A stretch of 44,776 nt of DNA, taken from sequence record NC_073075; one strand, given 5' to 3'. Position 1 is the first letter of the stretch. Every line of letters begins with the position of its first letter. Shown piece by piece: positions 235 to 44,776 of this stretch. Position numbers and translations under genes: made by a program. The notes beneath the pieces were generated by a model. It made no database searches and was not told the origin of the DNA. It worked only from the letters and a program-made list of their open reading frames with translations. The DNA comes from Escherichia phage ZCEC10.

Positions 235-564
235 ATGAATGTAAACGACGCAATCGAAATGTTAACGAAGACTGTTTGCAGTGAGACAAGCCGGTCATGG
301 GCTTATACCGATGCCGTGGGTGCGGTGTTATTTGAAATCGAGCGCCTGCGCAGTGTCGAAAAAGAATTGCGCGCCCGGCTGGAATTACTCAACGGTACGG
401 CAGCAAGCAAGCTGCAAAAACACAATGAAGAAATGGAAGAATACAAAAAGCAGGTTATCCGTTTGCGCGCCGAGGGTAAATCGTGGGCGATGATTGCCGA
501 GTTGACCGGAATTAATCAGAGCACAGTGCGCTCTTGGGTACGCAATAATAAAACTTCTAAGTAA
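235..564 (+). CDS. Helix-turn-helix DNA-binding protein, putative transcriptional regulator
   Basis: 109-aa ORF; C-terminal GKSWAMIAELTGINQSTVRSWVRN is a classic HTH; GAGGG RBS upstream. Confidence 0.6.
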   Translation: MNVNDAIEMLTKTVCSETSRSWAYTDAVGAVLFEIERLRSVEKELRARLELLNGTAASKLQKHNEEMEEYKKQVIRLRAEGKSWAMIAELTGINQSTVRSWVRNNKTSK

Positions 565-574
565 GGCCACGGCA

Positions 575-2839
575 ATGAGCTTAATTAAATTCGCTGTAAC
601 ACGACCCGCTAAAAAAGGCGAAAAAGCCAGGGCGGAAAACTTCCAGATGACTACCGAAGAGTTTTTCGAATTTATCAATGATGCGAAAGAAATATCCTCG
701 GTGCATATCAATAAGACGGAAGATAAAGCCGAGTATGCGCGCCGCAAGCGTAAGGCCGATGGCATCGTGGCGTATACCAGTGACGGATTGCGTCGTAAGA
801 CCAGTGCGGTGGACCGCTCGATCCTGTTCTTTGATATTGACCGCACCGACACCCGCACCCTACGCCGCTGCCGTAAGGCGTTCATCGACGCGGGACTGGA
901 GCACGTATTTCACACCACAACCGGCGACCGCCACCCGCTGAAAGGCGGCACGCGTTGCGCCCGTTTCCTGGTGCTCACGGACAAGCCTGTACCGGCTGAA
1001 GACCTGGGCCGCGTCCAGTATGCACTATTACACCAACTGGGTCTGTCAGATGTGGACTTCGACGACTGTACAAAAGACACAAACCGCCTTATGTACCTGC
1101 CACATCAGCAGTCTGTCGTTAAGTGCCACTACGGCAAACGCGCCAGCGTCCGTCGTCTGCTCCGTCGGGCGGATAAGCTGGGGGTGGAAAAAGAGGAAGT
1201 ACGCCGCGAACTAACCCAGGGCGATGACGGCGTGGCGGACGGCATTCTGGACTGGTGCTTCCAGGCAGGATTCGAGGAGTTATCTTCCGGTCGCGGTTAT
1301 GAAGTGCCGTGCCCGAACGAACATCTGCACAGCGGCGAAGGGTCGACGGCTATCATGGTCAAGGATGGCGAGACCCGTTTCAAGTGTATGCACACCGGCA
1401 ACGAGTGTTGCTCGGAACTGAACAGACACCAGCACCTGGCGCTGCGTCTTATCGGGATCCCGGACCACCTGAACGTCGAGCCACACAATATGTCACGCAA
1501 GCAAATCGCCGCCATCCTTCCGGGACTGGACGACGAGGAAGTGGAATCCTGCTATGAACATATCGTTGATGCAGTTGGCGACGGCGAAGAATACGGCGTG
1601 TGCACCGATGCCGACCTGGACAACGAGCCGGTTGCGCTGTTCAGTAAGCACGACCCGATCATCGAGGGGTTGATTAACTTTAAATCGACCTGGTACATGG
1701 CTGGCGAATCGAACATCGGTAAATCGTTCTACGTGCTGGGGCAGATGGGTGCGGTTGCCGCGGGTATTCCGTTTGGCGGTGCGAAGGTCGTCCAGTCTCA
1801 TTGCTTCTATTTCGACGCGGAAGGTGGCGAAGCCTCCAACCAGCGTAAGGAAGCATTGCAAATTAAATATGAGCACGACCTGGACAAGCTGCACATTATC
1901 GATCTGCAATCACGCGGCTGGGATATCACCAGCAAGTCCGGCTTGCGCGAAGTTATCAGCTTCATCAACCGCACCGCTAACGGCGAACCGGTTGGCCTGG
2001 TGGCGTTCGACTCACTCAACCAGACGGTTGCGTTGCGGTCCGCCGATGCCAAACCGTTCGACGAGAACAACGCCAGCGATATGGGCGAAGTGGTCAAGGC
2101 ACTGAAGGCCATCGCGGAAAACACAGGCGGCAGTGCGGGCGTCATCCACCACCCGGCGAAGGGTGCAAACGGAAGCAGATCCCCCCGCGGGTCCGGCGCG
2201 CTGCATGGCGCTGTCGATTCTGCGTTCTTCCTGGAACAGCCGGACGACAACCAGCCGGGACAACTTAACCTGTATCACGAAAAGGCACGTAACGGCATCA
2301 AGCAAGCGCCGCGCGGCTTCGTCCTGCTCAAGTGCAAGGTTAAGGTGGATCTCCGCAAGTCCGAGGCGTTCGAAGCCCACCAGTCCACCAGCACCGGGCC
2401 GGACTTCGGTGATGTGGTCGCCGGTTGGGACGTCAAGCCGATTGCCTCCACGCCTCGCGACGAGACTCTGTACCTCGTACCGGTCGCCCTGGCACCGTTC
2501 GCCATCGAACAGGCGAAGGCCGCGGGCAAGGCAGCAGTTAAGGAAGAGAACGCCGCGGGACCGCGCAACGAAAAAGAGAAAGTGCTCTATGCGGCACTGG
2601 AAAAACTGATGGAAGATAACCCGGACCATACCGGATTCAGTAAATCGGCAATTGTCCGCCAGGCTGGACTGGCGAAAGGTGGTACATCGACGAAGGCAAT
2701 TGACGATATGATCGAGCGCGGCGTACTCGGTTTTTATACAGACCCACACACCGGGGCCATCTATGGGTCGTCGAATATCGTCATAAAAACGAATATACCA
2801 ATCACGCTTTCTGCGACCGATGATGATTTGAAAGATTAA
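575..2839 (+). CDS. Bifunctional primase-polymerase / P-loop replicative helicase
   Basis: 754 aa; N-terminal FFDIDRTD prim-pol-like motif, Cys/His zinc-binding cluster (CPNEHLHSG...CMHTGNEC), Walker A GESNIGKS and Walker B-like VAFDSL. Confidence 0.8.
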   Translation: MSLIKFAVTRPAKKGEKARAENFQMTTEEFFEFINDAKEISSVHINKTEDKAEYARRKRKADGIVAYTSDGLRRKTSAVDRSILFFDIDRTDTRTLRRCRKAFIDAGLEHVFHTTTGDRHPLKGGTRCARFLVLTDKPVPAEDLGRVQYALLHQLGLSDVDFDDCTKDTNRLMYLPHQQSVVKCHYGKRASVRRLLRRADKLGVEKEEVRRELTQGDDGVADGILDWCFQAGFEELSSGRGYEVPCPNEHLHSGEGSTAIMVKDGETRFKCMHTGNECCSELNRHQHLALRLIGIPDHLNVEPHNMSRKQIAAILPGLDDEEVESCYEHIVDAVGDGEEYGVCTDADLDNEPVALFSKHDPIIEGLINFKSTWYMAGESNIGKSFYVLGQMGAVAAGIPFGGAKVVQSHCFYFDAEGGEASNQRKEALQIKYEHDLDKLHIIDLQSRGWDITSKSGLREVISFINRTANGEPVGLVAFDSLNQTVALRSADAKPFDENNASDMGEVVKALKAIAENTGGSAGVIHHPAKGANGSRSPRGSGALHGAVDSAFFLEQPDDNQPGQLNLYHEKARNGIKQAPRGFVLLKCKVKVDLRKSEAFEAHQSTSTGPDFGDVVAGWDVKPIASTPRDETLYLVPVALAPFAIEQAKAAGKAAVKEENAAGPRNEKEKVLYAALEKLMEDNPDHTGFSKSAIVRQAGLAKGGTSTKAIDDMIERGVLGFYTDPHTGAIYGSSNIVIKTNIPITLSATDDDLKD

Positions 2840-2933
2840 ATTTTGCGCGCATTGGTTGCCATTTTGGGTGTTTTTATCCGGTCGTATTGGTTGCCGTGTA
2901 GTGTAAATATAGTGAATAGTTATGCAATAAAAC

Positions 2934-3110
2934 TGCATAAAGTAAGCGGGACAGAAAGCGGGACAAACAAGGGGCGGGACAAAGCGGGACAGCACCCCCG
3001 TCCCGCCCCGGATGGCGCGGCCTGGCGAGGAGCGGGACAGCGGGACAGCACCCCAGTCTTTCAGACTAGACGGGGGGTCAATGGCCCCCCTCGTCTGAGA
3101 CTGCATAAAA
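2934..3110. repeat. Iteron-rich GC repeat R1 (six GCGGGACA(A/G) units plus long imperfect hairpin), paralogous to 20084..20253
   Basis: About 90 percent identical by eye to the second copy; both begin TGCATAAAGTAAGCGGGACAG and end in the hairpin cagactagacgggggg...cccccctcgtctgagactg. Confidence 0.8.
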
Positions 3111-3263
3111 TCCGGGGATTGCAAAATACACGGCAGCAGGATGCGAATCGCGGTCGTGGGCGAACTAGGCAACCAATGCGATATGTATTATGTGGAGTGA
3201 AAAACGCAGTTTGCAGCCACAGCAGATAGCGATCAACTTTTTCATGCGCGTGATTAATATTGG

Positions 3264-3292
3264 TTGCACTTGACCCGGCACCTTGCTATATT
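3264..3292 (+). promoter_or_regulatory. Sigma70-like promoter (TTGCAC-17-TATATT) flanked by two ATTGGTTGCAC motif copies
   Basis: -35 TTGCAC 3264..3269, 17-nt spacer, -10 TATATT 3287..3292; downstream gene starts at 3320. Confidence 0.5.
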
Positions 3293-3319
3293 GGTTGCAC
3301 ACCAACAGGAGGGCAGAAC

Positions 3320-3499
3320 ATGAAAACCGAAATGGTTAATAAGCGCGAAATCAAGATCGGCGATACGGTAGTCCACAACGGGGAGCTTCGCACTGTGTGC
3401 AAGCGGGCGTTTAGCATAGATGAATTTATGGGCCTGCTACTTTGGGGCGACAGCTATCGTTTAGGGCATAAACTGGTTGAGAGGGTTACGGAACTATGA
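3320..3499 (+). CDS. Hypothetical protein (59 aa)
   Basis: ATG preceded by AGGAGGG RBS; stop overlaps next gene start (ATGA). Confidence 0.45.
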   Translation: MKTEMVNKREIKIGDTVVHNGELRTVCKRAFSIDEFMGLLLWGDSYRLGHKLVERVTEL

Positions 3500-3801
3500 A
3501 AGCACTAATCTGGAATTACACAATGGCCGTGGCAAAGCTGGACGAAGCGAAGGCACTCAACGGCAACGTAGATCAGGCGCTTCAGGTTGCGATAATGGCA
3601 CATCAATCAATCCGGAGCGCGCTTTATGGTATGGACGCCAGCCTGGACGAACTGAAGCCGTTGCGTATGGCAATCCACGAATACGCGATGGCATTCTCCC
3701 GTGAGCGCCTGGCCTATCGCTTCGGTATTGGCGATAAGGCAGTGACAAACGTCGCCCGGATTAAAGCCCAGCGCGAACTATTCGCCCAGCTTGCGAAATA
3801 A
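3496..3801 (+). CDS. Hypothetical protein
   Basis: 101-aa ORF, translationally coupled to upstream gene. Confidence 0.55.
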   Translation: MKALIWNYTMAVAKLDEAKALNGNVDQALQVAIMAHQSIRSALYGMDASLDELKPLRMAIHEYAMAFSRERLAYRFGIGDKAVTNVARIKAQRELFAQLAK

Positions 3802-6900: not shown

Positions 6901-8043
6901 ATGCACCCGCAAACTAAAATCACCGACGAGCAATTGATCGCCGAGTTGCAATCCGGCACTACCGCGAAAGAGATTGCGAAGAAGTACGGCCTTTCCCTCC
7001 GAAATGTCTACATGCGAAAAGCCCGCCTTTCGAAGAAAGGGATTGGTCACGGCAACGATGCCGTAATCCGTAAGCGCGTTGCCGATGGCTTCGGCGTTAA
7101 GCGCGTATCCGCCCTGGTGCGCGGCAATGGCGAGGAGGTCATGTCCTGGGTCATCACCGAGCAGGACAAGGAGCGCCAACTCGAGGCAATGCGCGCCGTT
7201 GTCGAAGGGATGAACAGCGAAATCACACCGGCAGCGCCAGTAAACGCCCCGCCAGTACCGATCCAGGCGCTCGACTTACTCAACCTGTACACCGTGTCAG
7301 ACTTCCACCTGGGCATGTTGGCCTGGGGCGAGGAGACTGGCGAAGACTGGGATATGGCGATTGCCGAAGACCTGTTCTACCGCTGGTTTGTCGAAGCCTT
7401 CGCACGCGCACCAGATGCAGGCACTGCCGTAATTAATATCCTCGGTGATATGGCGCACTTTGATAGCCTTGATGCCGTCACACCTGCCAGCGGTCACATA
7501 CTGGACGCTGACACCCGCTACCAGAAACTGGTCCGATACATGATTCGCATGGTGCGCAACGTAGTCGAACTGGCGCTGCAAAAACACCACAAAGTCAAAC
7601 TGCTAATCGTCCAGGGGAATCATGACGAGTCGGGTATGATTTGGCTGGCTGAGATGTTCAATACTCTGTACGAGAACGAGCCGCGCGTCGATGTGGATAC
7701 GTCCCCTGACGTCTACAAAATGGTGCAGCACGGCAAGACCACGCTATTCTTCCACCACGGGCACAAAGCGCGATTCGATGCGATCGAGCAGGTTATGATT
7801 TCTAAATTCAGACAGGCTTTCGGGTCCAGTGAGTACAGCTACGCGCACGTAGGCCACTTGCACCACCAGAAGATTGTAGAATCCCGCAACATGATTGTTG
7901 AACAGCACCGAACACTCGCCGCGAAAGACGCATATGCCAGCCGTGGTGGTTGGATGTCCGGTCGCAGCGCAAACGTCATCACCTACAGCGCCAACTACGG
8001 CGAAGTAGCGCGCTTAACCATTAGCCCGGAAATGTTGAAGTAA
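6901..8043 (+). CDS. HTH domain fused to a calcineurin-like metallophosphoesterase
   Basis: 380 aa; N-terminal HTH (TAKEIAKKYGLSLRNVYMRKARL); metallophosphatase motifs DFHLG, GDMAHFD, QGNHDE, HHGHK, GHLHHQ. Confidence 0.7.
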   Translation: MHPQTKITDEQLIAELQSGTTAKEIAKKYGLSLRNVYMRKARLSKKGIGHGNDAVIRKRVADGFGVKRVSALVRGNGEEVMSWVITEQDKERQLEAMRAVVEGMNSEITPAAPVNAPPVPIQALDLLNLYTVSDFHLGMLAWGEETGEDWDMAIAEDLFYRWFVEAFARAPDAGTAVINILGDMAHFDSLDAVTPASGHILDADTRYQKLVRYMIRMVRNVVELALQKHHKVKLLIVQGNHDESGMIWLAEMFNTLYENEPRVDVDTSPDVYKMVQHGKTTLFFHHGHKARFDAIEQVMISKFRQAFGSSEYSYAHVGHLHHQKIVESRNMIVEQHRTLAAKDAYASRGGWMSGRSANVITYSANYGEVARLTISPEMLK

Positions 8044-8062: not shown

Positions 8063-8089
8063 CAGCCTGCCGATTTGGTGGGCTTTTTT
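8063..8089 (+). terminator. Putative rho-independent terminator
   Basis: Imperfect stem agcctgcc/ggtgggct followed by TTTTTT. Confidence 0.45.
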
Positions 8090-8094
8090 GTGCC

Positions 8095-8103
8095 TGTTAT
8101 AAT
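8095..8103 (+). promoter_or_regulatory. Possible extended -10 promoter element (TGtTATAAT) upstream of terminase small subunit
   Basis: TGTTATAAT at 8095..8103 about 70 nt upstream of the ATG at 8174. Confidence 0.35.
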
Positions 8104-8173
8104 CCCAATTAGATGGCAGGGCCGTCTCCTATGTTGCCGATGGTCGGCGCATATGCACAAAAGGGCTTATATC

Positions 8174-8725
8174 ATGGCAGAAATCAAAGTTAAGGGCCGA
8201 CGCGCCAAACTGGACGGACGAGTGGCAGTAACCCCGCGCCGTAAACCAGGCGAGCAAACAGAACATACCAATCTCGGACCTGAGATCGAATATGGCAAGC
8301 GTCGTAAAGGCGGCAAATGTGGGCGCCCTACTGACTACCGATCCGTTTACTGCGACCAGCTTCGCCGCTATTTTGCCGACGCCGACGCCTGGCAGGTAAA
8401 CTACTCCGATAAAGGCGCTGCGCAAGTAATCCCCCGCAACAAAATGCCAACCTTCGGTCGATTTGCCGCGGAAATCGGCGTGGGCGTAGCTTGCCTGTAT
8501 CGCTGGGCGCGTGCGCATGAGGAGTTCGCCGAGGCGATGGCGGACGCTATGGAGTTGCAGAAAACATTCCTGATGGAAGCTGGCGGCGTGACCATCGCGG
8601 CAGGCTTCGCTACGTTCCTACTTAAAGCCAACCACGGCGTCCGCGATGATGTTCCACTGGATGACGACGAAGATGATAACGGCGACGTCGTTGTGGAACC
8701 TACCGGCAAAGGCCAGGGTGAGTAA
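8174..8725 (+). CDS. Terminase small subunit
   Basis: 183 aa directly upstream of and overlapping the large terminase; HTH-like segment PTFGRFAAEIGVGVACLYRWARAHEEFAEA; acidic C-terminus. Confidence 0.6.
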   Translation: MAEIKVKGRRAKLDGRVAVTPRRKPGEQTEHTNLGPEIEYGKRRKGGKCGRPTDYRSVYCDQLRRYFADADAWQVNYSDKGAAQVIPRNKMPTFGRFAAEIGVGVACLYRWARAHEEFAEAMADAMELQKTFLMEAGGVTIAAGFATFLLKANHGVRDDVPLDDDEDDNGDVVVEPTGKGQGE

Positions 8726-13051: not shown

Positions 13052-13163
13052 CCCGTCCGCAGACCCCGACGAGGATTTGATGATTGACGTGAAAAATATG
13101 GAATGCGGGGCGAAGCTGAGGGCGCAGGTCCTGGAGTTGCAGCAAATAATTAAGGGGCCGTAA
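12933..13163 (+). CDS. o-spanin (Rz1-like lipoprotein) embedded in/overlapping the i-spanin gene
   Basis: 76 aa, signal peptide with lipobox LSAC, Pro-rich mature part; RBS AAAGAGG. Confidence 0.55.
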   Translation: MLRALTALIVVLMLSACGSSNVPLMPLTESALRPPCKFDNPSADPDEDLMIDVKNMECGAKLRAQVLELQQIIKGP

Positions 13164-13177
13164 TGGCCCCCTTTTGT
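13153..13177. terminator. Bidirectional rho-independent terminator between convergent genes
   Basis: Stem ggggcc/ggcccc with loop gtaat, AT-rich on both flanks. Confidence 0.7.
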
Positions 13178-19187: not shown

Positions 19188-19217
19188 TTTGGTCGCTTAA
19201 ATAGCGAGTGATAATAT

Positions 19218-19244
19218 GGGGCCAGCACGGCCCCTTTTTTTTTT
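19218..19244 (+). terminator. Rho-independent terminator after major tail gene
   Basis: Stem ggggcc/ggcccc followed by T10. Confidence 0.75.
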
Positions 19245-19260
19245 ATTGGAGAATATTACA

Positions 19261-19623
19261 ATGGCTAAAGCACCACTCTTCACACTTGACCCTAAGCCAA
19301 CCTTTAAGCTGCCGATTGAGATTCCGCGCCCTGGTGAGAACGAACCCGGCAAGATGACGTTTACCGTCCGTCACCGCCCGATCGACGAATTTTCGCAAAC
19401 CATGCAGGACACCGAACGGAAGTTGTCGGAATATGACGACAATGACCCGGACGGATTTAACGTTATGGTCGAGGCCATCATGCACGTCGCTGAAGGCTGG
19501 AATCTGCCGGACGAATTTAACGCAGAGAACGTCCGCCGCCTGGTGGTCAACTACCCACGCGCGTTCGGTGTGTTCCACACGTCGTACTATCTCGAGCTGA
19601 TGGGGTTGCGTGAAAAAAACTAA
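19261..19623 (+). CDS. Tail assembly chaperone (G-like)
   Basis: 120 aa between major tail and tape measure genes; ends at slippery AAAAAAC. Confidence 0.7.
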   Translation: MAKAPLFTLDPKPTFKLPIEIPRPGENEPGKMTFTVRHRPIDEFSQTMQDTERKLSEYDDNDPDGFNVMVEAIMHVAEGWNLPDEFNAENVRRLVVNYPRAFGVFHTSYYLELMGLREKN

Positions 19624-19937
19624 TTGAGGCGGCGCGACGCTTTTATGGCCCGCCGCCACCCTCCGAAGATTTAGCCGCAAGTTTATGGGGAGCGGCCCCC
19701 GAAGATGTTTGTCCGCCTGTTGCGCTATGGCCCGACAACGCGAAGGTAGTCGCAGTCTTCACAGATTGCTCCACGCAATGGCGCACCGGATTTGGTGGCG
19801 CATACGGCATCGACTACGGCGTGCTGGCGTGGTTATTTAAGATGCACGGTATCGAAAACGAGCAGCGAGCGTTTAAAGATATCAAGCTAATGGAACGAAT
19901 CGCGCTTGATGAGATGGCGCAGCAGAACCCCGCATAA
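19261..19937 (+). CDS. Tail assembly chaperone GT-like fusion made by programmed -1 frameshift at 19614..19620
   Basis: Slippery heptamer A_AAA_AAC immediately before the G stop; the -1 frame is open for 105 more codons to TAA at 19935..19937 with no ATG start of its own. Confidence 0.6.
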
Positions 19938-19943
19938 TGAAGC

Positions 19944-19973
19944 GGGACAAAGCGGGACGTCCCGCTTTGTCCC
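19944..19973. repeat. Perfect 30-bp palindrome GGGACAAAGCGGGAC|GTCCCGCTTTGTCCC
   Basis: Arms are exact reverse complements with no loop; built from the same GCGGGACA unit as the iteron repeats. Confidence 0.8.
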
Positions 19974-20083
19974 TACCTGTAAAACCGCATATCTAATCAC
20001 TATTATTGCATAAACTCAAAGCGGGACAGGCGGGGCGTCCCGTTTTGTCCCACCCCGAAATGTGCATACCTATTCGAATTTCG

Positions 20084-20253
20084 TGCATAAAGTAAGCGGG
20101 ACAGAAAGCGGGACAGCCAAGGGGCGGGACAAAGCGGGACAGCACCCCGTCCCCGCCAGTGCTGCCGCGGGTTTTAGCCGATCGGGACAGCGGGACAGCA
20201 CCCCAGTCTTTCAGACTAGACGGGGGGTCAACGGCCCCCCTCGTCTGAGACTG
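20084..20253. repeat. Iteron-rich GC repeat R2, paralogous to 2934..3110
   Basis: Same unit order and terminal hairpin as R1. Confidence 0.8.
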
Positions 20254-20320
20254 AATAAGGATTGTTTTAAAATCGCTGATACAATGTCAATCGGCAACTG
20301 CATAAAAAGGGGACTGCATA

Positions 20321-22963
20321 ATGGCAGATCAAGCGGCAGGCATCACGCTGAAGGCTGATGTTGCACAAATCAGAACGGCAAATACTGTGCTGGACTCCTT
20401 CGCACAGAAATCCGAGAACACAGAAAACAAGGTTAAGAAATTAAACGACACCCTCGGCAAATCCAAAAAGGTTACTGGCGACGCCGCGGGCGGAATGGAG
20501 AAGCTGGCGACTGAATCGCAGCGCGCCGCCGATGGCATGACGAAACAAGAGCGACTTGCCAACAGGTTAGGCATGTCGACCAAAAACCTGGGCTTTGCCT
20601 CGCGTAACGCCGCATTCCAGTTACAGGATATCGCAGTTACGCTTGAGATGGGGATGCCGGTACACCGCGTTATGCTTCAGCAGCTACCACAGCTAACCGG
20701 CGCATTTGGCGGACTGGGTAACACGCTGCGTTATGTTGCAGGCTTCCTCGGCCCAGTAGGGATCGGACTTGCTGCCGTAACGGCGACGTTAGGCGTGGGC
20801 GTGGCAATTACGTCACGGGCAGAGAACCAGGTAGCCGCGCTTAATAAGACGCTGGCGCTGTCCGGTAATATCTCCGGCCTCACAGCTAACCAGATCCTGG
20901 TGCTGTCCGAGAACGCTGAGCGCATGGGCGGGTCATTTCGCAAGACGCGTGACACAATCCAGGCGCTGGCGGCGGCGGGTGTGAAAGCGGGTGGTGACTT
21001 CGGCGCATTGGCTAAGGTAGTTAATGACTTTGCGAAGGTGTCCAGCCAGCCGATCGAGGATGTGGTAGCGGCGGTGGCGAAGCTGTCAACCGACCCCGTT
21101 GGCGGACTGCGTGCGCTGGCGGATAAGTATCACGTCGTAAACGAAGCGCAGATCCAGCAGGTACAGTCGCTCGTTGATGCGGGTCGTGAGACAGACGCAG
21201 TTGCGTTGGCTAACAAAACAGCCGCTGCGTCGTTCACCAGCATGACCAATGAGATCAAGGCGAACATGGGTACGCTTGAGCGGTCGATGAACGTCGTCAC
21301 ATCGGCAGCCAAATCGATGTGGGACGCTATCCTGGATGTGGGTCGCGCGCAGTCCTCCAATGAATCCGAGATGAAAGCGCGCGAATCACTGCAGCGGCTG
21401 ACCACGGCTTACTATGCCGAGATGAAAGCGGTAAACGCTGCCGGTGGGGTAATGACTGAAGCGCAGAAAGCACGTATTAACATGCTTTACAGCGAACTGG
21501 TCGCCCAGGAAAAAGTGGTGGCGTCGCTCACCCTGCGTAACCGTGCTGAGCGAGACAACGCCCGCGCCGCAGACGAATCCGCAAAGGCGAACGAGGAGGC
21601 CAACCGCACTGCCCGTGACCGCGCCGCGTTCGAGAAGGAATACGCCACCAACGCTAAGAAGCGCGCCGACGAGATCGCCCGCCTCAATTTGCTGAATAAG
21701 CGCGGCGTTATTGATGAGAAAGAACTAGCCGAGGCGGTGAAGCAGGTTAACAAGCGCTACAAAGACCCGGCACCGAAGAAGGCTGCGGCTGTTCGCGTGG
21801 ATGCTGGTATGAAAATGCTGGAAGTCGCACGGAGCGAACTGGCCCAGCTTCGAGAATCCGGCAAGCAGATCGAAGCCAACGCATCGACGCAGACCCGCAC
21901 GCAACGCGCTCAAGCGGCCTTAAACAAGCTGATCGCGGATAATGAGCAGTTAATCGCCGCAAGCAAAGAAAGGGCGCTAACGGCAGCCGAAAAGCAGCAG
22001 ATGGTCGAATTCGGACGCGTGAAGGAAGTGCGCGAGCAGATCGTCGAAGAAGCCAAATTGCTGGACGCGAAAGAGAAGCAGGTCAAGGCGCACGCGCAGA
22101 TCGATGCCTTCGTTAAGAACCAGAACGCCGAACTAAAAGCCACCGCCGCGGGTTATGCGCTTTCCACTCGCGAAGCGGCAAACCTGCGTGAAGAATTGCA
22201 GCTAATTGACCGCTTGAAGCGGGTTGGCGCTAACGATACCGATATTGACAAGGCGGTGTCTAAGCTGCGCGAAGTGCAGGAGGCACAGACCGGCGCTAAC
22301 GCCTCGCTATGGGATGGCTTCAGCCGCGGGCTTAAGGATAGCGTGGATGATATGGGTAACGGATATACGCAGATGGCGTCGCTCACAAAATTCACGTTCA
22401 GCGCTATGCAAGACACGATGAACGAGTTTTTCGAGACGGGCAAGCTGAACGCAAAGGATATGGTTAAGTCCATCCTTAGCGAATTAATAAAGCTGGCTAC
22501 CTCGCAGGCATTCAAGTCCATCGTTAGCGCTTTCGGCGGTGACGGCGGCAAAAACGGATTGTTCGGCGCTATCTTCTCTGGCCTCACTAAGAATGCGGAC
22601 GGCGGAGCGTACGCAGGAGGCAATCTCGCGGCCTATTCGGGGAAAGTGGTAAGCCAGCCTACCTTTTTCAGTTATGGCGTCCAGGCGTTCGCTAAGGGCG
22701 CCGGGTTGATGGGTGAGGCCGGACCTGAGGCCATCATGCCGCTGAAGCGCGGGCCAGACGGTAAACTTGGCGTTGCCGCGTCGGGCGCAGGCGGTGGTAT
22801 GGTCGTGACGACTAACGTTTACACGGGGGCCGGTAAAACAGATACCAGTGTCAGTGGGCCAGACCCACGTACCGCGCAGGCGTTCGGGAAGCAAATCACC
22901 GAGGCGGTCAAGGCCGAGATCGTGAAGGCGACGAAACCGGGTGGTGTACTTTACAAACGATGA
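20321..22963 (+). CDS. Tail tape measure protein
   Basis: 880 aa, Ala/Glu/Lys-rich coiled coil, Gly-rich C-terminus, located after the chaperone pair. Confidence 0.85.
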   Translation: MADQAAGITLKADVAQIRTANTVLDSFAQKSENTENKVKKLNDTLGKSKKVTGDAAGGMEKLATESQRAADGMTKQERLANRLGMSTKNLGFASRNAAFQLQDIAVTLEMGMPVHRVMLQQLPQLTGAFGGLGNTLRYVAGFLGPVGIGLAAVTATLGVGVAITSRAENQVAALNKTLALSGNISGLTANQILVLSENAERMGGSFRKTRDTIQALAAAGVKAGGDFGALAKVVNDFAKVSSQPIEDVVAAVAKLSTDPVGGLRALADKYHVVNEAQIQQVQSLVDAGRETDAVALANKTAAASFTSMTNEIKANMGTLERSMNVVTSAAKSMWDAILDVGRAQSSNESEMKARESLQRLTTAYYAEMKAVNAAGGVMTEAQKARINMLYSELVAQEKVVASLTLRNRAERDNARAADESAKANEEANRTARDRAAFEKEYATNAKKRADEIARLNLLNKRGVIDEKELAEAVKQVNKRYKDPAPKKAAAVRVDAGMKMLEVARSELAQLRESGKQIEANASTQTRTQRAQAALNKLIADNEQLIAASKERALTAAEKQQMVEFGRVKEVREQIVEEAKLLDAKEKQVKAHAQIDAFVKNQNAELKATAAGYALSTREAANLREELQLIDRLKRVGANDTDIDKAVSKLREVQEAQTGANASLWDGFSRGLKDSVDDMGNGYTQMASLTKFTFSAMQDTMNEFFETGKLNAKDMVKSILSELIKLATSQAFKSIVSAFGGDGGKNGLFGAIFSGLTKNADGGAYAGGNLAAYSGKVVSQPTFFSYGVQAFAKGAGLMGEAGPEAIMPLKRGPDGKLGVAASGAGGGMVVTTNVYTGAGKTDTSVSGPDPRTAQAFGKQITEAVKAEIVKATKPGGVLYKR

Positions 22964-30482: not shown

Positions 30483-32315
30483 ATGGCAGCGGGTACACTC
30501 TCCGTAACGAATAACAGCAAGGCGGTTGTCGGGGCAGGCACGACGTTTACCGCGTTTACCGCTGGCGACTTCTTAACTCTGGTGGTGGGGCAAGTCCCCT
30601 ACACCGTGGCGATCTCTTCCGTCGAGAGCGACACCGCGCTTACTTTGGTGCTGCCGTTCGATGGACCAACGGCAACCGGCCTTGCGTGGGATGGGGTTAA
30701 GCGCGATACCATGTCACTGGCAACGATGGGCGTTACCGTACAGGCACAGAAAGCATTGCGCTTGATGATTGCGGATGAAAACAACTGGCGTGCAATCTTC
30801 GGCGACGCTGAAGAAATCACAGTGACGTTACCTAACGGGCAGGTTATGCAGGGTATGTCATGGGGCTACCTGTCATCCTTGATGAAGGAAGTAGACCCCG
30901 TCGAGATGCGCAACCTGCAACAACAAGCCGCCGCATCGGAAGCCGCCGCGCAAGGATTTCGTAATGAGGCCGAAGGCTTCAAGACTGAGACGGCTGGGAT
31001 TCGCGACGCCACCAACCAGATTAAGGCGGATACGCAGGCGGTCCACGACGCCACTAATACCATCAAGACGCAAACCGATCAGATTAAATCTGATACGCAG
31101 GCCATAAAAGACCAGACCAACCAGATTAAGACGGATACCGGCGTTATTCGCGACGAAGCTAATACAGCGAAGACCGACGCGCAAGCCGCCCGCGATGCCG
31201 CGCGAGGGTTTCGCGATCAGGCGGAAGAATGGGCGCAAAGCGTAAACCCCGACAATCTGCTAACCAAATCCGGCAACCTCGCCGGGCTTGCGGACAAAAG
31301 TGCGTCGTGGGCTAACCTTATGCCGTCAGGACCGCTTCGCGTAGGCGCGGACCCCATTGAGGATCTGGATGCCGCGACTAAGCGCTGGACTCTGGCGCTT
31401 TTAGACGCAGGCACGGCGAATACGTCGTGGAGTGTTAAGAACGCAGATGGTAGCGCACCTCCACTCGGCACTGTCGTCCGTGGCGGCGAGGTGGTATCGG
31501 AATATTCCAACCCAACAGCTACGCAGTTCGCCCGTCTGTACTCAAGCTCGGTATTTGGTTCTTCTGTCGGGGCTGTTGTTGAGTCTCAGGGGGCAGACGT
31601 ACACCAATTCAGGTTCTATGAGAACGGTAACATGGACTTCCGAAAGTCCGGTCATGGAAACGCTTTGGGGATGTATTCTGCCCAGGTCGCCTGGGATTCG
31701 ATACTCCGTGCGGGGCCGTCCGACTTGGTTACGGGCGGGGTTGATCGTGTGTCGGAAGGTGCTGGCTCGGATATCGTACTACTTGGTTATTCACTCGGTG
31801 CGGCTGGTCCAACAGGGTATCCGACTAAAGTAGGCTTCCACCAATACATGCCAGGAAGTCCAGCATTCGGTTCGGCGGTCATTACTGTTGGTGGTGATAA
31901 CAACTTCTGGTCGCGGTACTTCTTCGATATCACCGGGCAGATTTACGGGGCTACAAACAACGGCGAGTTCAGCTACGCGCGTAATGGCGTATCTGATGAG
32001 CGGGTTAAGCATGATATCGCCCCTGTAGGTGTTGAAAAGTCGTATTCTAATATTCGGGGTCTGGAGTTTGTAAAGTTCGTCTACAATAACGACGAGCAGG
32101 AGCGCGTCCGGCATGGTGTAATTGCGCAGCAGGCGGAGACTGTGGAACCTCTATACGTTAAGACTCGTAAGTACGTGGGTATTAATCCGGGAGAGGTTGT
32201 GGAGCAGAAGGAACTGGACACCACGCCGATGTTGCTGGATACTATGCACGTTGTGCAGACGTTGATGCAGAAGATCGAGGCTATGGAGGCCGAGATCGCG
32301 GCGCTGAAGAAATAA
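30483..32315 (+). CDS. Tail fibre protein with C-terminal intramolecular chaperone (peptidase S74-like) domain
   Basis: 610 aa; tandem IKxDTQAxxDxTN repeat segment; C-terminal SDERVKHDI...VVQTLMQKIEAMEAEIAALKK resembles auto-cleaving chaperone domains. Confidence 0.75.
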   Translation: MAAGTLSVTNNSKAVVGAGTTFTAFTAGDFLTLVVGQVPYTVAISSVESDTALTLVLPFDGPTATGLAWDGVKRDTMSLATMGVTVQAQKALRLMIADENNWRAIFGDAEEITVTLPNGQVMQGMSWGYLSSLMKEVDPVEMRNLQQQAAASEAAAQGFRNEAEGFKTETAGIRDATNQIKADTQAVHDATNTIKTQTDQIKSDTQAIKDQTNQIKTDTGVIRDEANTAKTDAQAARDAARGFRDQAEEWAQSVNPDNLLTKSGNLAGLADKSASWANLMPSGPLRVGADPIEDLDAATKRWTLALLDAGTANTSWSVKNADGSAPPLGTVVRGGEVVSEYSNPTATQFARLYSSSVFGSSVGAVVESQGADVHQFRFYENGNMDFRKSGHGNALGMYSAQVAWDSILRAGPSDLVTGGVDRVSEGAGSDIVLLGYSLGAAGPTGYPTKVGFHQYMPGSPAFGSAVITVGGDNNFWSRYFFDITGQIYGATNNGEFSYARNGVSDERVKHDIAPVGVEKSYSNIRGLEFVKFVYNNDEQERVRHGVIAQQAETVEPLYVKTRKYVGINPGEVVEQKELDTTPMLLDTMHVVQTLMQKIEAMEAEIAALKK

Positions 32316-40997: not shown

Positions 40998-41783
40998 TTA
41001 ACGGCGACGACGTTTACGTGGTGCTTCGTCTTCGTCGTCTTCGTCCTCATCTTCGTCATCGCGGGACTTGCGGCGTTTGCGAGGTTTTTCATCTTCCTCA
41101 TCGTCGTCGTCATCGCGGCGCTTGGATTTCTTGGACTTGCGCGGCTTGTCATCTTCATCATCGTCATCACGACGTTTTGACTTCTTAGCCTTGCGCGGTG
41201 CTTCGTCTTCGTCGTCGTTGTCCAGGTCTTCATCGGAGCAAGAAGACCCGCCACCCCCGAAGGCTTCACCGTCATCACGGAAGCGTAAACCCAGCAAGCC
41301 AGCACCGAGTCCCTTGCCGTTGGTGTTGTTCCACGCCCAAATATCAAGGGACACGTTGCAATAACAACCAGAGTAGATCTCCTGGCCTTCAATCTCGTCG
41401 CCTTCTACGGTCAGACCCTGTTCGGTCTGCTTCTCACCGAGTGACGTTTGAATGTTTGGCTGTTTGAACGATTTAGCGTTGATGTACAACATGCCTTCGA
41501 ATTCTTCAGTCACTTCGTCGCGCTCGTCACCGTCGCGGACTGCGCATTCCTTCGAATCCTGGGCGTAGTGGCGGTCCATCCACTTATCGGCATTCTTCTC
41601 GGATTTCAGCTTGTCGGTGAGCACTGCGCGCGCTGCCGCTTCCACTTTGTCCACCTGCGGATCTTCTTTATCCAGAAGAATCACGGCACGATATGCCGGT
41701 TTTTGTCCATCCTGTTTAGGGGTGTCACGTTCCCAAATTTTCAGGAAGCATACGCGCACATTTTTCAGGTTGACTTTAGCCAT
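40998..41783 (-). CDS. Single-stranded DNA-binding protein-like (T7 gp2.5 / DUF2815-type) with a long acid/basic repeat tail
   Basis: Start MAKVNLKNVRVCF with GAGGAA RBS; position between exonuclease and polymerase; C-terminal 80 aa of alternating DDDDEDD and KPRKSKKSKRR blocks. Confidence 0.6.
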   Translation of the reverse strand: MAKVNLKNVRVCFLKIWERDTPKQDGQKPAYRAVILLDKEDPQVDKVEAAARAVLTDKLKSEKNADKWMDRHYAQDSKECAVRDGDERDEVTEEFEGMLYINAKSFKQPNIQTSLGEKQTEQGLTVEGDEIEGQEIYSGCYCNVSLDIWAWNNTNGKGLGAGLLGLRFRDDGEAFGGGGSSCSDEDLDNDDEDEAPRKAKKSKRRDDDDEDDKPRKSKKSKRRDDDDDEEDEKPRKRRKSRDDEDEDEDDEDEAPRKRRRR

Positions 41784-44017: not shown

Positions 44018-44530
44018 TTAATCTTCCAATTCGAAATAGGTTTCGACGATTTCTTTTAGCTCTGTGTGGAAGTCTTCGACGTCGTCATCTTCCAGCTTGG
44101 CGATTGATTTGATCTCGAACGACTCCAGCAGGTCGTCGAATTCGTCGTTCGCGTCGTCGTCATCACCGCCAGCGATAATCGCGGCATATTGTTTGATCTC
44201 GTCGCGCATCTCTGCCAGCGGATCGGCATCTTTCTTACCTTTGCCTTTCGCCGGTGCTTTCTTAGCCTTAGCCGGTTTTTCGTCTTCGGCATCGTCGTCG
44301 TCTTCTACGACTTCTTTTTTGGCCTTGCCTTTCGCCGGGGCTTTTTTAGATTTAGCCGGTTTTTCGTCATCGTCGTCATCGTCGTCATCTTCGACAACTT
44401 CTTTTTTGGCCTTAGACGGCTTCTTGTCTTCCTGCTTACCAACGGCAGCGCCAGCGGTTTCATAATGTTTAGCGATGGTTTCCAGTGCTACTACGCCGCG
44501 AGTGATCAGGTTTACGATTTGCTCAAACAT
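44018..44530 (-). CDS. Acidic early protein with tandem acid/basic repeats; first gene of the leftward operon (alternative start at 44710)
   Basis: 170 aa from the ATG at 44530 with GGAG RBS; two near-identical 25-aa units (KKEVVEDDDD..EKPAK.KKAPAKGK.KK); Asp/Glu-rich C-terminus. Confidence 0.55.
   Translation of the reverse strand: MFEQIVNLITRGVVALETIAKHYETAGAAVGKQEDKKPSKAKKEVVEDDDDDDDDEKPAKSKKAPAKGKAKKEVVEDDDDAEDEKPAKAKKAPAKGKGKKDADPLAEMRDEIKQYAAIIAGGDDDDANDEFDDLLESFEIKSIAKLEDDDVEDFHTELKEIVETYFELED
44225..44410. repeat. Tandem direct repeat (about 87 bp, two copies) inside the acidic early gene
   Basis: Two adjacent units sharing ...ggccttgcctttcgccgg..ctttttta.(a/c)(t/c)ttagccggtttttcgtc... 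Confidence 0.6.
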
Positions 44531-44699: not shown

Positions 44700-44776
44700 G
44701 CGTCCTGCATCCTGTCGACGGGGGGAATAATAGATTGGTTGCAGGATGGGTGTCAACAACTAATTTCAAAAAAAAA
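44700..44776. repeat. Terminal direct repeat, right copy
   Basis: Exact match to 1..77. Confidence 0.85.
44727..44756 (-). promoter_or_regulatory. Sigma70-like early leftward promoter (TTGACA-18-TATTAT, minus strand) inside the terminal repeat
   Basis: Minus-strand -35 TTGACA at 44751..44756, -10 TATTAT at 44727..44732, spacer containing TGCAACCAAT; identical copy at 28..58. Confidence 0.45.

Follow-up and report, generated by a model that had tools for sequence, protein, structure and literature searches.

Twin iteron-hairpin elements in Dhillonvirus genomes as possible duplicated replication-origin-type sites

Background

The 44,776-nt sequence of Escherichia phage ZCEC10 (NC_073075; the whole stretch analyzed is termed here the window) contains two copies of a 175-nt element, one of which lies 3' of a primase-helicase gene (copy B) and the other within the tail gene region (copy A), and each of which consists of an array of short direct repeats (iterons) followed by a GC-rich hairpin. 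Patterns of conservation and divergence among related phages suggest--tentatively, with a probability of roughly 0.45--that these are copies of a single cis-acting DNA module, that is, duplicated origin-type sites working with the phage replication machinery.

The repeats themselves are already known. In the record of Sodalis phage SO-1 (GQ502199) both elements are annotated, at the corresponding loci, as repeat regions A and B, with a note that these 'direct, inverted and palindromic repeat sequences' are mutually similar and have a 'possible' function. Within the literature searched, neither a functional study of the elements nor an analysis of their conservation, iteron swaps or mechanism was found, and likewise no published replication origin for the Dhillonviruses or for their Eiauvirus or Guernseyvirinae relatives. 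What is added here is the combination of swappable iterons with a nearly frozen hairpin, the deep conservation of the element, the finding that copy B is the older one, the regular presence of two copies per genome, and the AEP-primase, RepA-helicase and winged-helix-like make-up of the adjacent protein.

Results

Two copies of one element

The window is 100% identical to Escherichia phage ZCEC11 (OK310512), a virulent siphophage of the genus Dhillonvirus. A repeat finder combined with alignment detects one two-copy repeat family, the members of which (Table 1) are direct, 89% identical without gaps, both intergenic, both on the + strand and separated by ~17 kb. This bears out the near-identical non-coding twins of a preliminary description of the sequence, as well as the gene context given there: copy B begins 95 nt beyond the stop codon of the primase-helicase gene (a position that holds for all relatives examined), and copy A is flanked by the gene for the T part of the tail chaperone (19623-19937, DUF1799) on its left and by the tape measure gene (20321-22963) on its right. 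Of the extents proposed at that stage (2934..3110 and 20084..20253), both loci stand, but the end of copy A moves to 20258.

From left to right, each copy begins with a border motif, units 1-4 and an inverted unit; after a variable middle of ~25 nt come units 5-6, the hairpin module and a second border motif. The array of three or more direct short repeats that is taken as a mark of iteron origins is present as six CGGGACA units per copy. Six direct units had been described for both copies; this is exact for copy B, which has six occurrences of GCGGGACA, but copy A has five plus one TCGGGACA, which implies that the conserved core is the 7-mer CGGGACA. Similarly, the inverted unit that had been noted is clean in copy B (GTCCCGC) but degenerate in copy A (GTCCCCGCC); Ioannina and LM40P1 have GGGACGTCCCG and one more GTCCC in its place. 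Within the window GCGGGACA occurs 14 times, always on the + strand (2.4 expected; 14 is reached in 0 of 100 shuffles), and 13 of these sites fall within the two intergenic regions.

The hairpin module has the general form CAGTCT-TTC-AGACT-AGAC-G5-6-loop-C5-6-TC-GTCT-G-AGACTG, where, in predicted folds, AGTCT has two possible partners, the neighbouring AGACT and a distal one, which encloses the G/C stem. When the window is searched with a covariance model of the hairpin, exactly two sites are found, namely copies A and B (scores in Table 1; E ~1e-19), while the opposite strand scores only 19 bits. The GC-rich hairpin without a T-tract is also as first described: each copy has a G6/C6 stem-loop, and a scan detects no terminator-like site on the + strand of either region.

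At the edges, the left border motif is TTATGCA and/or (C/G)TGCATAAA and the right border motif is CTG(C/A)ATAA; the border motif has 6 sites in the window as against 1.1 expected, CTGCATAA repeats at the right border of copy B (3101-3108), and GAATAGTTATGCA is common to distant relatives. The middle segment of the window phage is GC-rich (GGCGCGG) and the flanks are moderately AT-rich. Two palindromes built from iteron units (Table 1) sit just 3' of the tail-chaperone stop codon; region B has no counterpart to them, and the IMG/VR relative described below has a cluster of this kind 5' of its copy A.

Conservation among Dhillonviruses

A search of related phages for conserved arrays, as the preliminary description had proposed, finds the element in all 157 of the matching GenBank records, every one of them a Dhillonvirus with matches in two or more places, and finds the units conserved. 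The number of copies is exactly two, at the same two loci, in nearly every complete genome or contig; of 16 IMG/VR contigs, 15 match the hairpin motif exactly at two sites and no more, and metagenome contigs mostly have two matches, with extra matches located at contig ends. Six CGGGAC units are present in every copy for which the full upstream sequence is available.

Conservation by position, measured as the mean majority-base fraction over 52 unique copies, is highest in the hairpin stem and its flanks (0.98), followed by the iteron units (0.93), the spacers between units and the middle segment (0.79 each) and the hairpin loop (0.71); the 14 nt before and the 6 nt after the stem are invariant. 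A hairpin sequence that is almost frozen would be read by something conserved. When compared with relatives whose primase-helicase is ~70% identical, the iteron and hairpin blocks retain 54-80% identity, versus 22-52% for the flanking non-coding DNA.

Copies A and B within one genome share derived states. Moreover, region B of SM_S22 (L073, PP627283; 39461-39753) has an A-type middle together with a tandem duplication of the left and middle parts, which suggests that the two copies exchange sequence by recombination or gene conversion. Many metagenome and Logan contigs (L153, L154, L155, L159, L163, L169, L177 and L179) start or end inside the element, as would be expected for a repeat; one such contig, of 27,589 bp, corresponds to the A-to-B arc of the genome.

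Several other identities for the element were considered and rejected. It has no match in 5,426 E. coli genomes and no blastn match among PLSDB plasmids, which dismisses a host or plasmid source; and its two copies at fixed syntenic loci, together with this absence, dismiss a miniature inverted-repeat transposable element (MITE) or other mobile repeat. A template/variable repeat (TR/VR) pair of a diversity-generating retroelement is rejected in that neither copy lies within a gene and the positions at which the two differ are concentrated in the middle segment and not specific to adenines; nor is a reverse transcriptase listed in the annotation of SO-1. Chi-like sites, cos or pac sites and a T5-type injection-stop signal are rejected on anatomy. 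Rfam 15 yields 0 matches to the element at the gathering score (and, at E-value thresholds, only hairpin noise from miRNA models), and no tRNA or tmRNA was found.

Ancestry of the copies

The twin arrangement extends well beyond the genus. The IMG/VR phage UViG_3300045988_050407, with a primase-helicase and a tape measure protein that are 68% and 57% identical, respectively, to those of the window, carries the twin at both loci with CGGGACA units. Edwardsiella phage eiAU (47% and 38%, respectively) has large gaps at both syntenic loci; at both, the unit is (T)CGCCCCG or GCCCGCCCC, C-rich when read along the sense strand, and copy A of eiAU ends in GAGGAGACGGGGG-loop-CCCCTCGTCCTC--that is, in the same GACGGGGG...CCCCTCGTC hairpin with a TC bulge. 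The twin loci are kept, in other words, down to relatives with 38-47% protein identity.

For Salmonella phage sp9 and Klebsiella phage 37P2, only the primase-helicase was matched among six window proteins tested, and a repeat-rich gap is still present 3' of its gene; the sp9 unit is GGGGAG(A), with C-rich inverted copies, and there is no second locus. Every relative examined has the same gene order--a small helix-turn-helix (HTH) gene, the primase-helicase gene and a gene-free gap of ~320-900 bp--and most of these gaps hold short repeats. Because relatives that share only the replication module keep an iteron-rich gap at this position, copy B is ancestral and part of that module, and copy A is a later duplicate common to Dhillonvirus and Eiauvirus.

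Iteron swaps and flips

Between lineages the iteron units are replaced wholesale. CGGGACA units occur in Dhillonvirus and in the relatives L148 and L155. In L149 and L153 (primase-helicase ~70% identical), every unit is GTGTGGCA(A) and one unit is flipped, the borders and hairpin module being almost letter-identical; the units are GTGTGCCA(A) in L152 and GGTGCCA in L154, to which are added CGCCCCG in eiAU and GGGGAG(A) in sp9. The cores GGGACA, GTGGCA and GTGCCA form a series, G[GT]G[AGC]CA, and single units flip orientation between lineages. Such wholesale replacement within a conserved frame, together with the flips, is in keeping with double-stranded (ds)DNA sites that would co-evolve with a sequence-specific reader; it is hard to square with a fixed RNA structure or RNA-binding motif in the iteron half.

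The middle segment of L080 (copy A of the IMG/VR relative), L149, L152, L154, L150 and L074 (eiAU, both loci) contains a conserved AT-rich block, TGATTTATAAGGAG, and one relative carries a GC-rich middle in one copy and an AT-rich middle in the other. The TGATTTATAAGGAG block may be an unwinding element or the site of another factor.

Pairing of the hairpin

Among 18 close variants, 94.8% of alignment cells pair, versus 41-57% when the partners are slid. In distant relatives the stem changes on both sides. Copy A of the IMG/VR relative has GGAC/GTCC in place of AGAC/GTCT (A-U to G-C), and L149 has GGGGTG/CACCC in place of GGGGGG/CCCCCC (G-C to U-A). In L152 the stem is rebuilt (GGGAG/CTCCC and GAGAT/GTCTC) and the 3-nt loop TTC becomes AAG; in eiAU the stem is rebuilt as well and the hairpin is kept. 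With a narrow covariance model, the versions in eiAU and L152 are barely detectable. Pairing is kept through change in distant relatives, with a few compensatory changes, which would suit a stem formed as RNA or as single-stranded DNA alike. IncQ-type single-strand initiation sites are marked by a hairpin of ~20 nt with conserved single-stranded flanks; the stem-loop here is 29 nt long, its flanks AGTCTTTCAGACT and AGACTG are invariant, and its loop is variable.

The adjacent primase-helicase and other candidate binding proteins

Pfam assigns only AAA_25 to the 754-residue primase-helicase (domain limits in Table 1). Its AEP primase fold has RSF1010 RepB' among the top matches, and its helicase core matches RSF1010 RepA. 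Residues 660-740, the part of the protein that diverges most between lineages, are modelled as three helices and a beta-hairpin, a topology that is putatively winged-helix-like, and this C-terminal domain is the candidate reader of the iterons. The dipeptide that follows the nearly invariant G702-G703, at the start of a putative recognition helix (703-714), is T[SN] with GGGACA, SS with GTGGCA and ST with GTGCCA; the match between dipeptide and iteron core is perfect across eight sequences, a sample that is too small.

Two HTH proteins had been put forward as element-binding candidates in the preliminary description, and neither fares well. The small HTH protein (235-564) keeps essentially the same recognition region whichever of four iteron types it accompanies, which makes it unlikely as the iteron reader; it more probably binds the motif TTGGTTGC. 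The product of 6901..8043 is metallophosphoesterase-like, with weak Pfam matches and no HTH match; SO-1 annotates its counterpart as a 'putative transcriptional regulator'. The small terminase gene (8075-8725) lies far from both copies.

Transcription signals and coding potential

A putative promoter lies downstream of each copy (Table 1). The layout of P_B recurs in relatives, and a consensus promoter scan did not call it; CTGATACAAT is kept downstream of every Dhillonvirus A copy with enough sequence and is not found in the IMG/VR relative. A terminator scan of 2500-3600 and 19600-20600 detects no terminator-like site on the + strand, and the sequence directly 3' of the hairpin, GAGACTGCATAAAA, has no T-run, which rules out an intrinsic (Rho-independent) terminator; canonical terminator-like hairpins with T-runs do occur elsewhere in the window (13144-13175 and 19213-19244). 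The + strand of the two copies folds somewhat better than shuffled sequences (z -2.3 and -2.5; - strand z -1.7).

A protein-coding element is also rejected. Open reading frames (ORFs) at 2843-3229 and 20062-20358 span the elements, and some annotations list hypothetical proteins there; any reading frame across the element is broken, however, because 1-nt indels separate the copies and the genomes from one another. Short ORFs that follow an AAGGAG-like (Shine-Dalgarno-like) block in L149 and L152 are, as read by eye, not conserved.

The motif TTGGTTGC has 19 sites on both strands (~1.2 expected), often paired and placed over the -35 and the spacer or start region of sigma-70-like promoters: 36, 2852, 2887, 3169(-), 3260, 3291, 3999(-), 14325/14338(-), 24993(-), 30457(-), 33571(-)/33583, 35245/35262(-), 38219(-), 41840, 41856 and 44735. 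Variants in relatives are TTGGCTGC, TTGGCAGC and TTGGCCGC, and possibly TTGCGAGT in 37P2. A phage regulator, perhaps the small HTH protein, probably uses the motif as its operator.

Table 1. Coordinates of the twin element, its parts and neighbouring features
Feature	Position	Strand	Remarks
Twin element copy B	2934..3108	+	Within 2840-3319 intergenic region, 3' of primase-helicase gene; repeat family and A/B alignment
Left border motifs of copy B	2920..2941		TTATGCA 2920-2926; CTGCATAAA 2933-2941
Iteron units 1-4, copy B	2946..2991	+	GCGGGACA at 2946, 2958, 2974, 2984
Inverted iteron unit, copy B	3000..3006	-	GTCCCGC; able to pair with unit 3 or unit 4
Iteron units 5-6, copy B	3032..3047	+	Motif count, sequence
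Hairpin module B	3054..3103	+	CAGTCT-TTC-AGACT-AGAC-G6-loop(3078-3084)-C6-TC-GTCT-G-AGACTG; folds, covariance model 78 bits
Twin element copy A	20084..20258	+	Within 19938-20320 intergenic region, between tail chaperone and tape measure genes; syntenic with SO-1 'region A'
Six iteron units, copy A	20096..20197	+	At 20096, 20108, 20124, 20134, 20182 (as TCGGGACA), 20190
Hairpin module A	20204..20253	+	Folds, covariance model 79 bits
Two palindromes from iteron units, upstream of copy A	19942-19975, 20021-20050		Near-perfect; +,+,-,- arrangement
Putative sigma-70 promoter P_B	3264..3292	+	TTGCAC, 17 nt, TATATT; within TTGGTTGC motifs; would serve genes after copy B; read by eye
Putative extended -10 promoter P_A	20277..20285	+	TGATACAAT; upstream of tape measure gene; read by eye
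Small HTH protein, upstream of primase-helicase	235..564	+	Pfam HTH_23, Sigma70_r4_2
Primase-helicase, 754 residues	575..2839	+	AEP primase fold ~1-205, Zn ribbon, RepA-type helicase 357-531, putative winged-helix-like C-terminal domain ~660-740

Other features of the window

Three further repeats were observed. An exact 77-bp direct repeat at the window ends (1-77 = 44700-44776) is most likely not biological, being the k=77 assembler overlap of a circular contig. TCGTCG-rich repeats at 41014-41234 and 44073-44404 (- strand coding) lie in a region that matches the first leftward early protein of relatives over its acidic C-terminal part, and they probably encode Asp/Glu-rich stretches on the minus strand. 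At 31011-31174, inside a probable tail fibre gene, are three tandem copies of a 59-nt unit (ACCAACCAGATTAAG...), 68-71% identical.

Within the element itself three resemblances are recorded as leads only: TTATGCA(C/A/G)N resembles a DnaA box at 7-8 of 9 positions; TGAATAGTTATGCA resembles an ARG box at 12 of 14 positions; and the G-rich sense strand has G-quadruplex or R-loop potential, an idea that is weakened by the C-rich eiAU version.

Discussion

A possible duplicated origin-type site

From the anatomy of the element, its two copies per genome, the linkage of copy B to the replication module, the swaps and flips of the iterons, the pairing of the hairpin and the folds of the adjacent protein, one may tentatively infer the following mechanism. 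The iteron array, with its six 7-bp CGGGACA units and its inverted units, would serve as a dsDNA landing pad for a sequence-specific reader, a candidate for which is the C-terminal winged-helix-like domain of the adjacent primase-helicase. Once the iterons had recruited this replication protein, the DNA would be opened and the hairpin exposed; the stem-loop, together with its invariant flanks, would then act as an entry or priming signal for the AEP-primase/RepA-helicase, as ssiA and ssiB do for RepB'. Copy A is a duplicate within the tail operon, where its own downstream promoter could restore expression of the tape measure gene; its role might be that of a second origin or, as has been proposed for SPP1 oriR, of a site at which bound initiator arrests forks. 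Among the roles listed in the preliminary description, replication-origin iterons are thus favored by the swaps, the flips and the tie between the ancestral copy and the replication module, whereas packaging and partition gain no support.

A number of observations weigh against an origin-type site. The literature searched yielded no published mapping of origins or of transcripts for these phages. An AT-rich unwinding segment is missing from the window phage element, where the middle is GC-rich, several relatives having TGATTTATAAGGAG at this place. The sense strand carries both copies, each of which sits at an operon boundary a short way 5' of a putative promoter, and for the hairpin a role in transcription or as RNA is an equally good fit. 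In contrast to the single-strand initiation sites of IncQ, the hairpins share one strand and lie 17 kb from each other. Formal covariation among the 18 close variants is not significant, there being 2 double-change pairs, a number reached in 28 of 500 shuffles. Nor do primase-helicase residues clearly track the iteron type: 11 columns (5 of them C-terminal) are specific to CGGGACA, as compared with 9 and 11 in control groupings. Finally, cumulative GC skew turns at ~1 and ~33 kb, at gene-orientation switches, and not at the elements; the skew follows gene orientation and is silent on the elements.

A more elaborate version of the origin hypothesis, which is decidedly speculative and itself rather unlikely, is that of a modular duplicated origin: the hairpin would serve the AEP-primase/RepA-helicase, the iteron types would be interchangeable in the manner of plasmid incompatibility groups, and copy A would set the switch from theta replication to concatemer synthesis. 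If true, iteron types would keep co-infecting relatives from competing for, or hijacking, each other's initiator, and the element would represent a new origin architecture and an instance of replicon-specificity evolution in lytic phages.

Alternative explanations

The element may instead control operon boundaries, with the iterons binding a phage transcription factor for P_B and P_A or blocking read-through, and with the stem-loop acting as a factor-dependent terminator, an attenuator, an RNase processing site or a 3' stabilizer. This explanation, though on the unlikely side, draws on the location of each copy between the end of a transcription unit and a putative promoter, on a sense strand that carries all units but one, on the better folding of the + strand than of the - strand, on a terminator called inside copy B in one GenBank record and on the U-G wobbles that two variants give on the sense strand. 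The lack of a T-tract and of any +-strand terminator call tells against it in a window where T-run hairpins do occur, and a terminator would not usually have 14 invariant nt before its stem and 6 after it. Moreover, the ancestral copy tracks the replication module across lineages whose genes otherwise differ, and a purely transcriptional role leaves the duplication into the tail operon unexplained, just as attenuator and structured-RNA options leave the iteron swaps and flips unexplained. An improbable reading is that of a cis-acting structured RNA: either a processive antitermination signal of the HK022 putL/putR or lambda nutL/nutR type, or a non-coding RNA that titrates an RNA-binding protein via GGGACA. 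Consistent with such an RNA are two similar sense-strand sites in one long rightward gene block, one of them downstream of the terminator-like hairpin at 19213-19244, and a conserved hairpin with alternative AGTCT/AGACT pairings; on the other hand, the unit flips and the C-rich eiAU unit would each alter the RNA sequence, the loop is free to vary (unlike the protein-binding loops of boxB type), lineages differ in how the left half pairs, and Rfam provides no match.

Least probable by far is a neutral or selfish repeat--a MITE-like insertion or a leftover duplication--or a packaging or partition site. Short flanking repeats, with CTGCATAAA on both sides of copy B and TTATGCA/TGCATAA inverted, might be expected of an insertion, and recombination between copies A and B is seen in SM_S22 region B; yet the copies nearly always number two, at the same two loci, even in the most distant of the relatives that keep the twin, their conservation is strong and position-specific, and hosts and plasmids lack them. 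As for packaging, Dhillonviruses are reported to package by headful (PMC9022532), and both copies are far from the small terminase gene; no partition genes were found among the proteins scanned or in the SO-1 annotation.

Significance

Several Dhillonviruses (SECphi and BASEL phages) are in use for studies of anti-phage defence. If the elements are origins, they provide a testable map of where replication starts and a cis target of a widespread, uncharacterised AEP-primase/RepA-helicase fusion. The natural iteron-swap variants are ready reagents for specificity experiments. For phage engineering, the elements must be kept, and recombination of the 175-bp direct repeat would delete 17 kb of essential genes. 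The twin repeat also breaks metagenomic assemblies of these phages.

Comparison with known systems

At the origin of RSF1010, RepC binds the iterons, RepA unwinds the DNA and RepB' primes at hairpin ssi sites, which it recognizes via stem-flanking nucleotides (PMC8567376). The RSF1010 oriV differs from the elements described here in that ssiA and ssiB are two inverted 40-nt sites on opposite strands of one origin, whereas each element here has one + strand hairpin; in addition, a single protein here combines primase and helicase, and no homologue of RepC was found. IncQ iterons are ~20 bp in length, whereas the units here are 7-8 bp.

Another parallel is satellite phage P4, which has two separate cis sites, ori and crr; in each, an octamer is present several times and in both orientations, and the alpha primase-helicase binds it through its C-terminal winged-helix domain. 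As in P4, there would be two cis sites with short repeats and a single primase-helicase that binds both. Alpha has a different primase and an SF3 helicase, however; no sequence relation is known, and P4 is not known to carry a conserved hairpin module.

SPP1 has two similar origins based on direct repeats: oriL lies within a replication gene, and oriR is found in the late region, next to moron genes. These are 13 kb apart on the circle, are both bound by one initiator, and, in the case of oriR, lie in a segment bracketed by transcription signals (PMC6316719). It is proposed that oriR stalls forks and thereby triggers the theta-to-sigma switch and concatemer synthesis (PMC6316719). SPP1 differs in having the initiator gp38, a helicase loader, a DnaB-type helicase and an AT-rich unwinding element, whereas in the window phage no separate initiator is identifiable and the middle is GC-rich, and a conserved hairpin has not been described for the SPP1 origins. 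The likeness is in layout: in both cases one site of a twin pair (17 kb apart here) lies with the replication genes and the other among the late genes, and in two relatives copy A lies beside an inserted minus-strand ORF, much as oriR lies beside morons.

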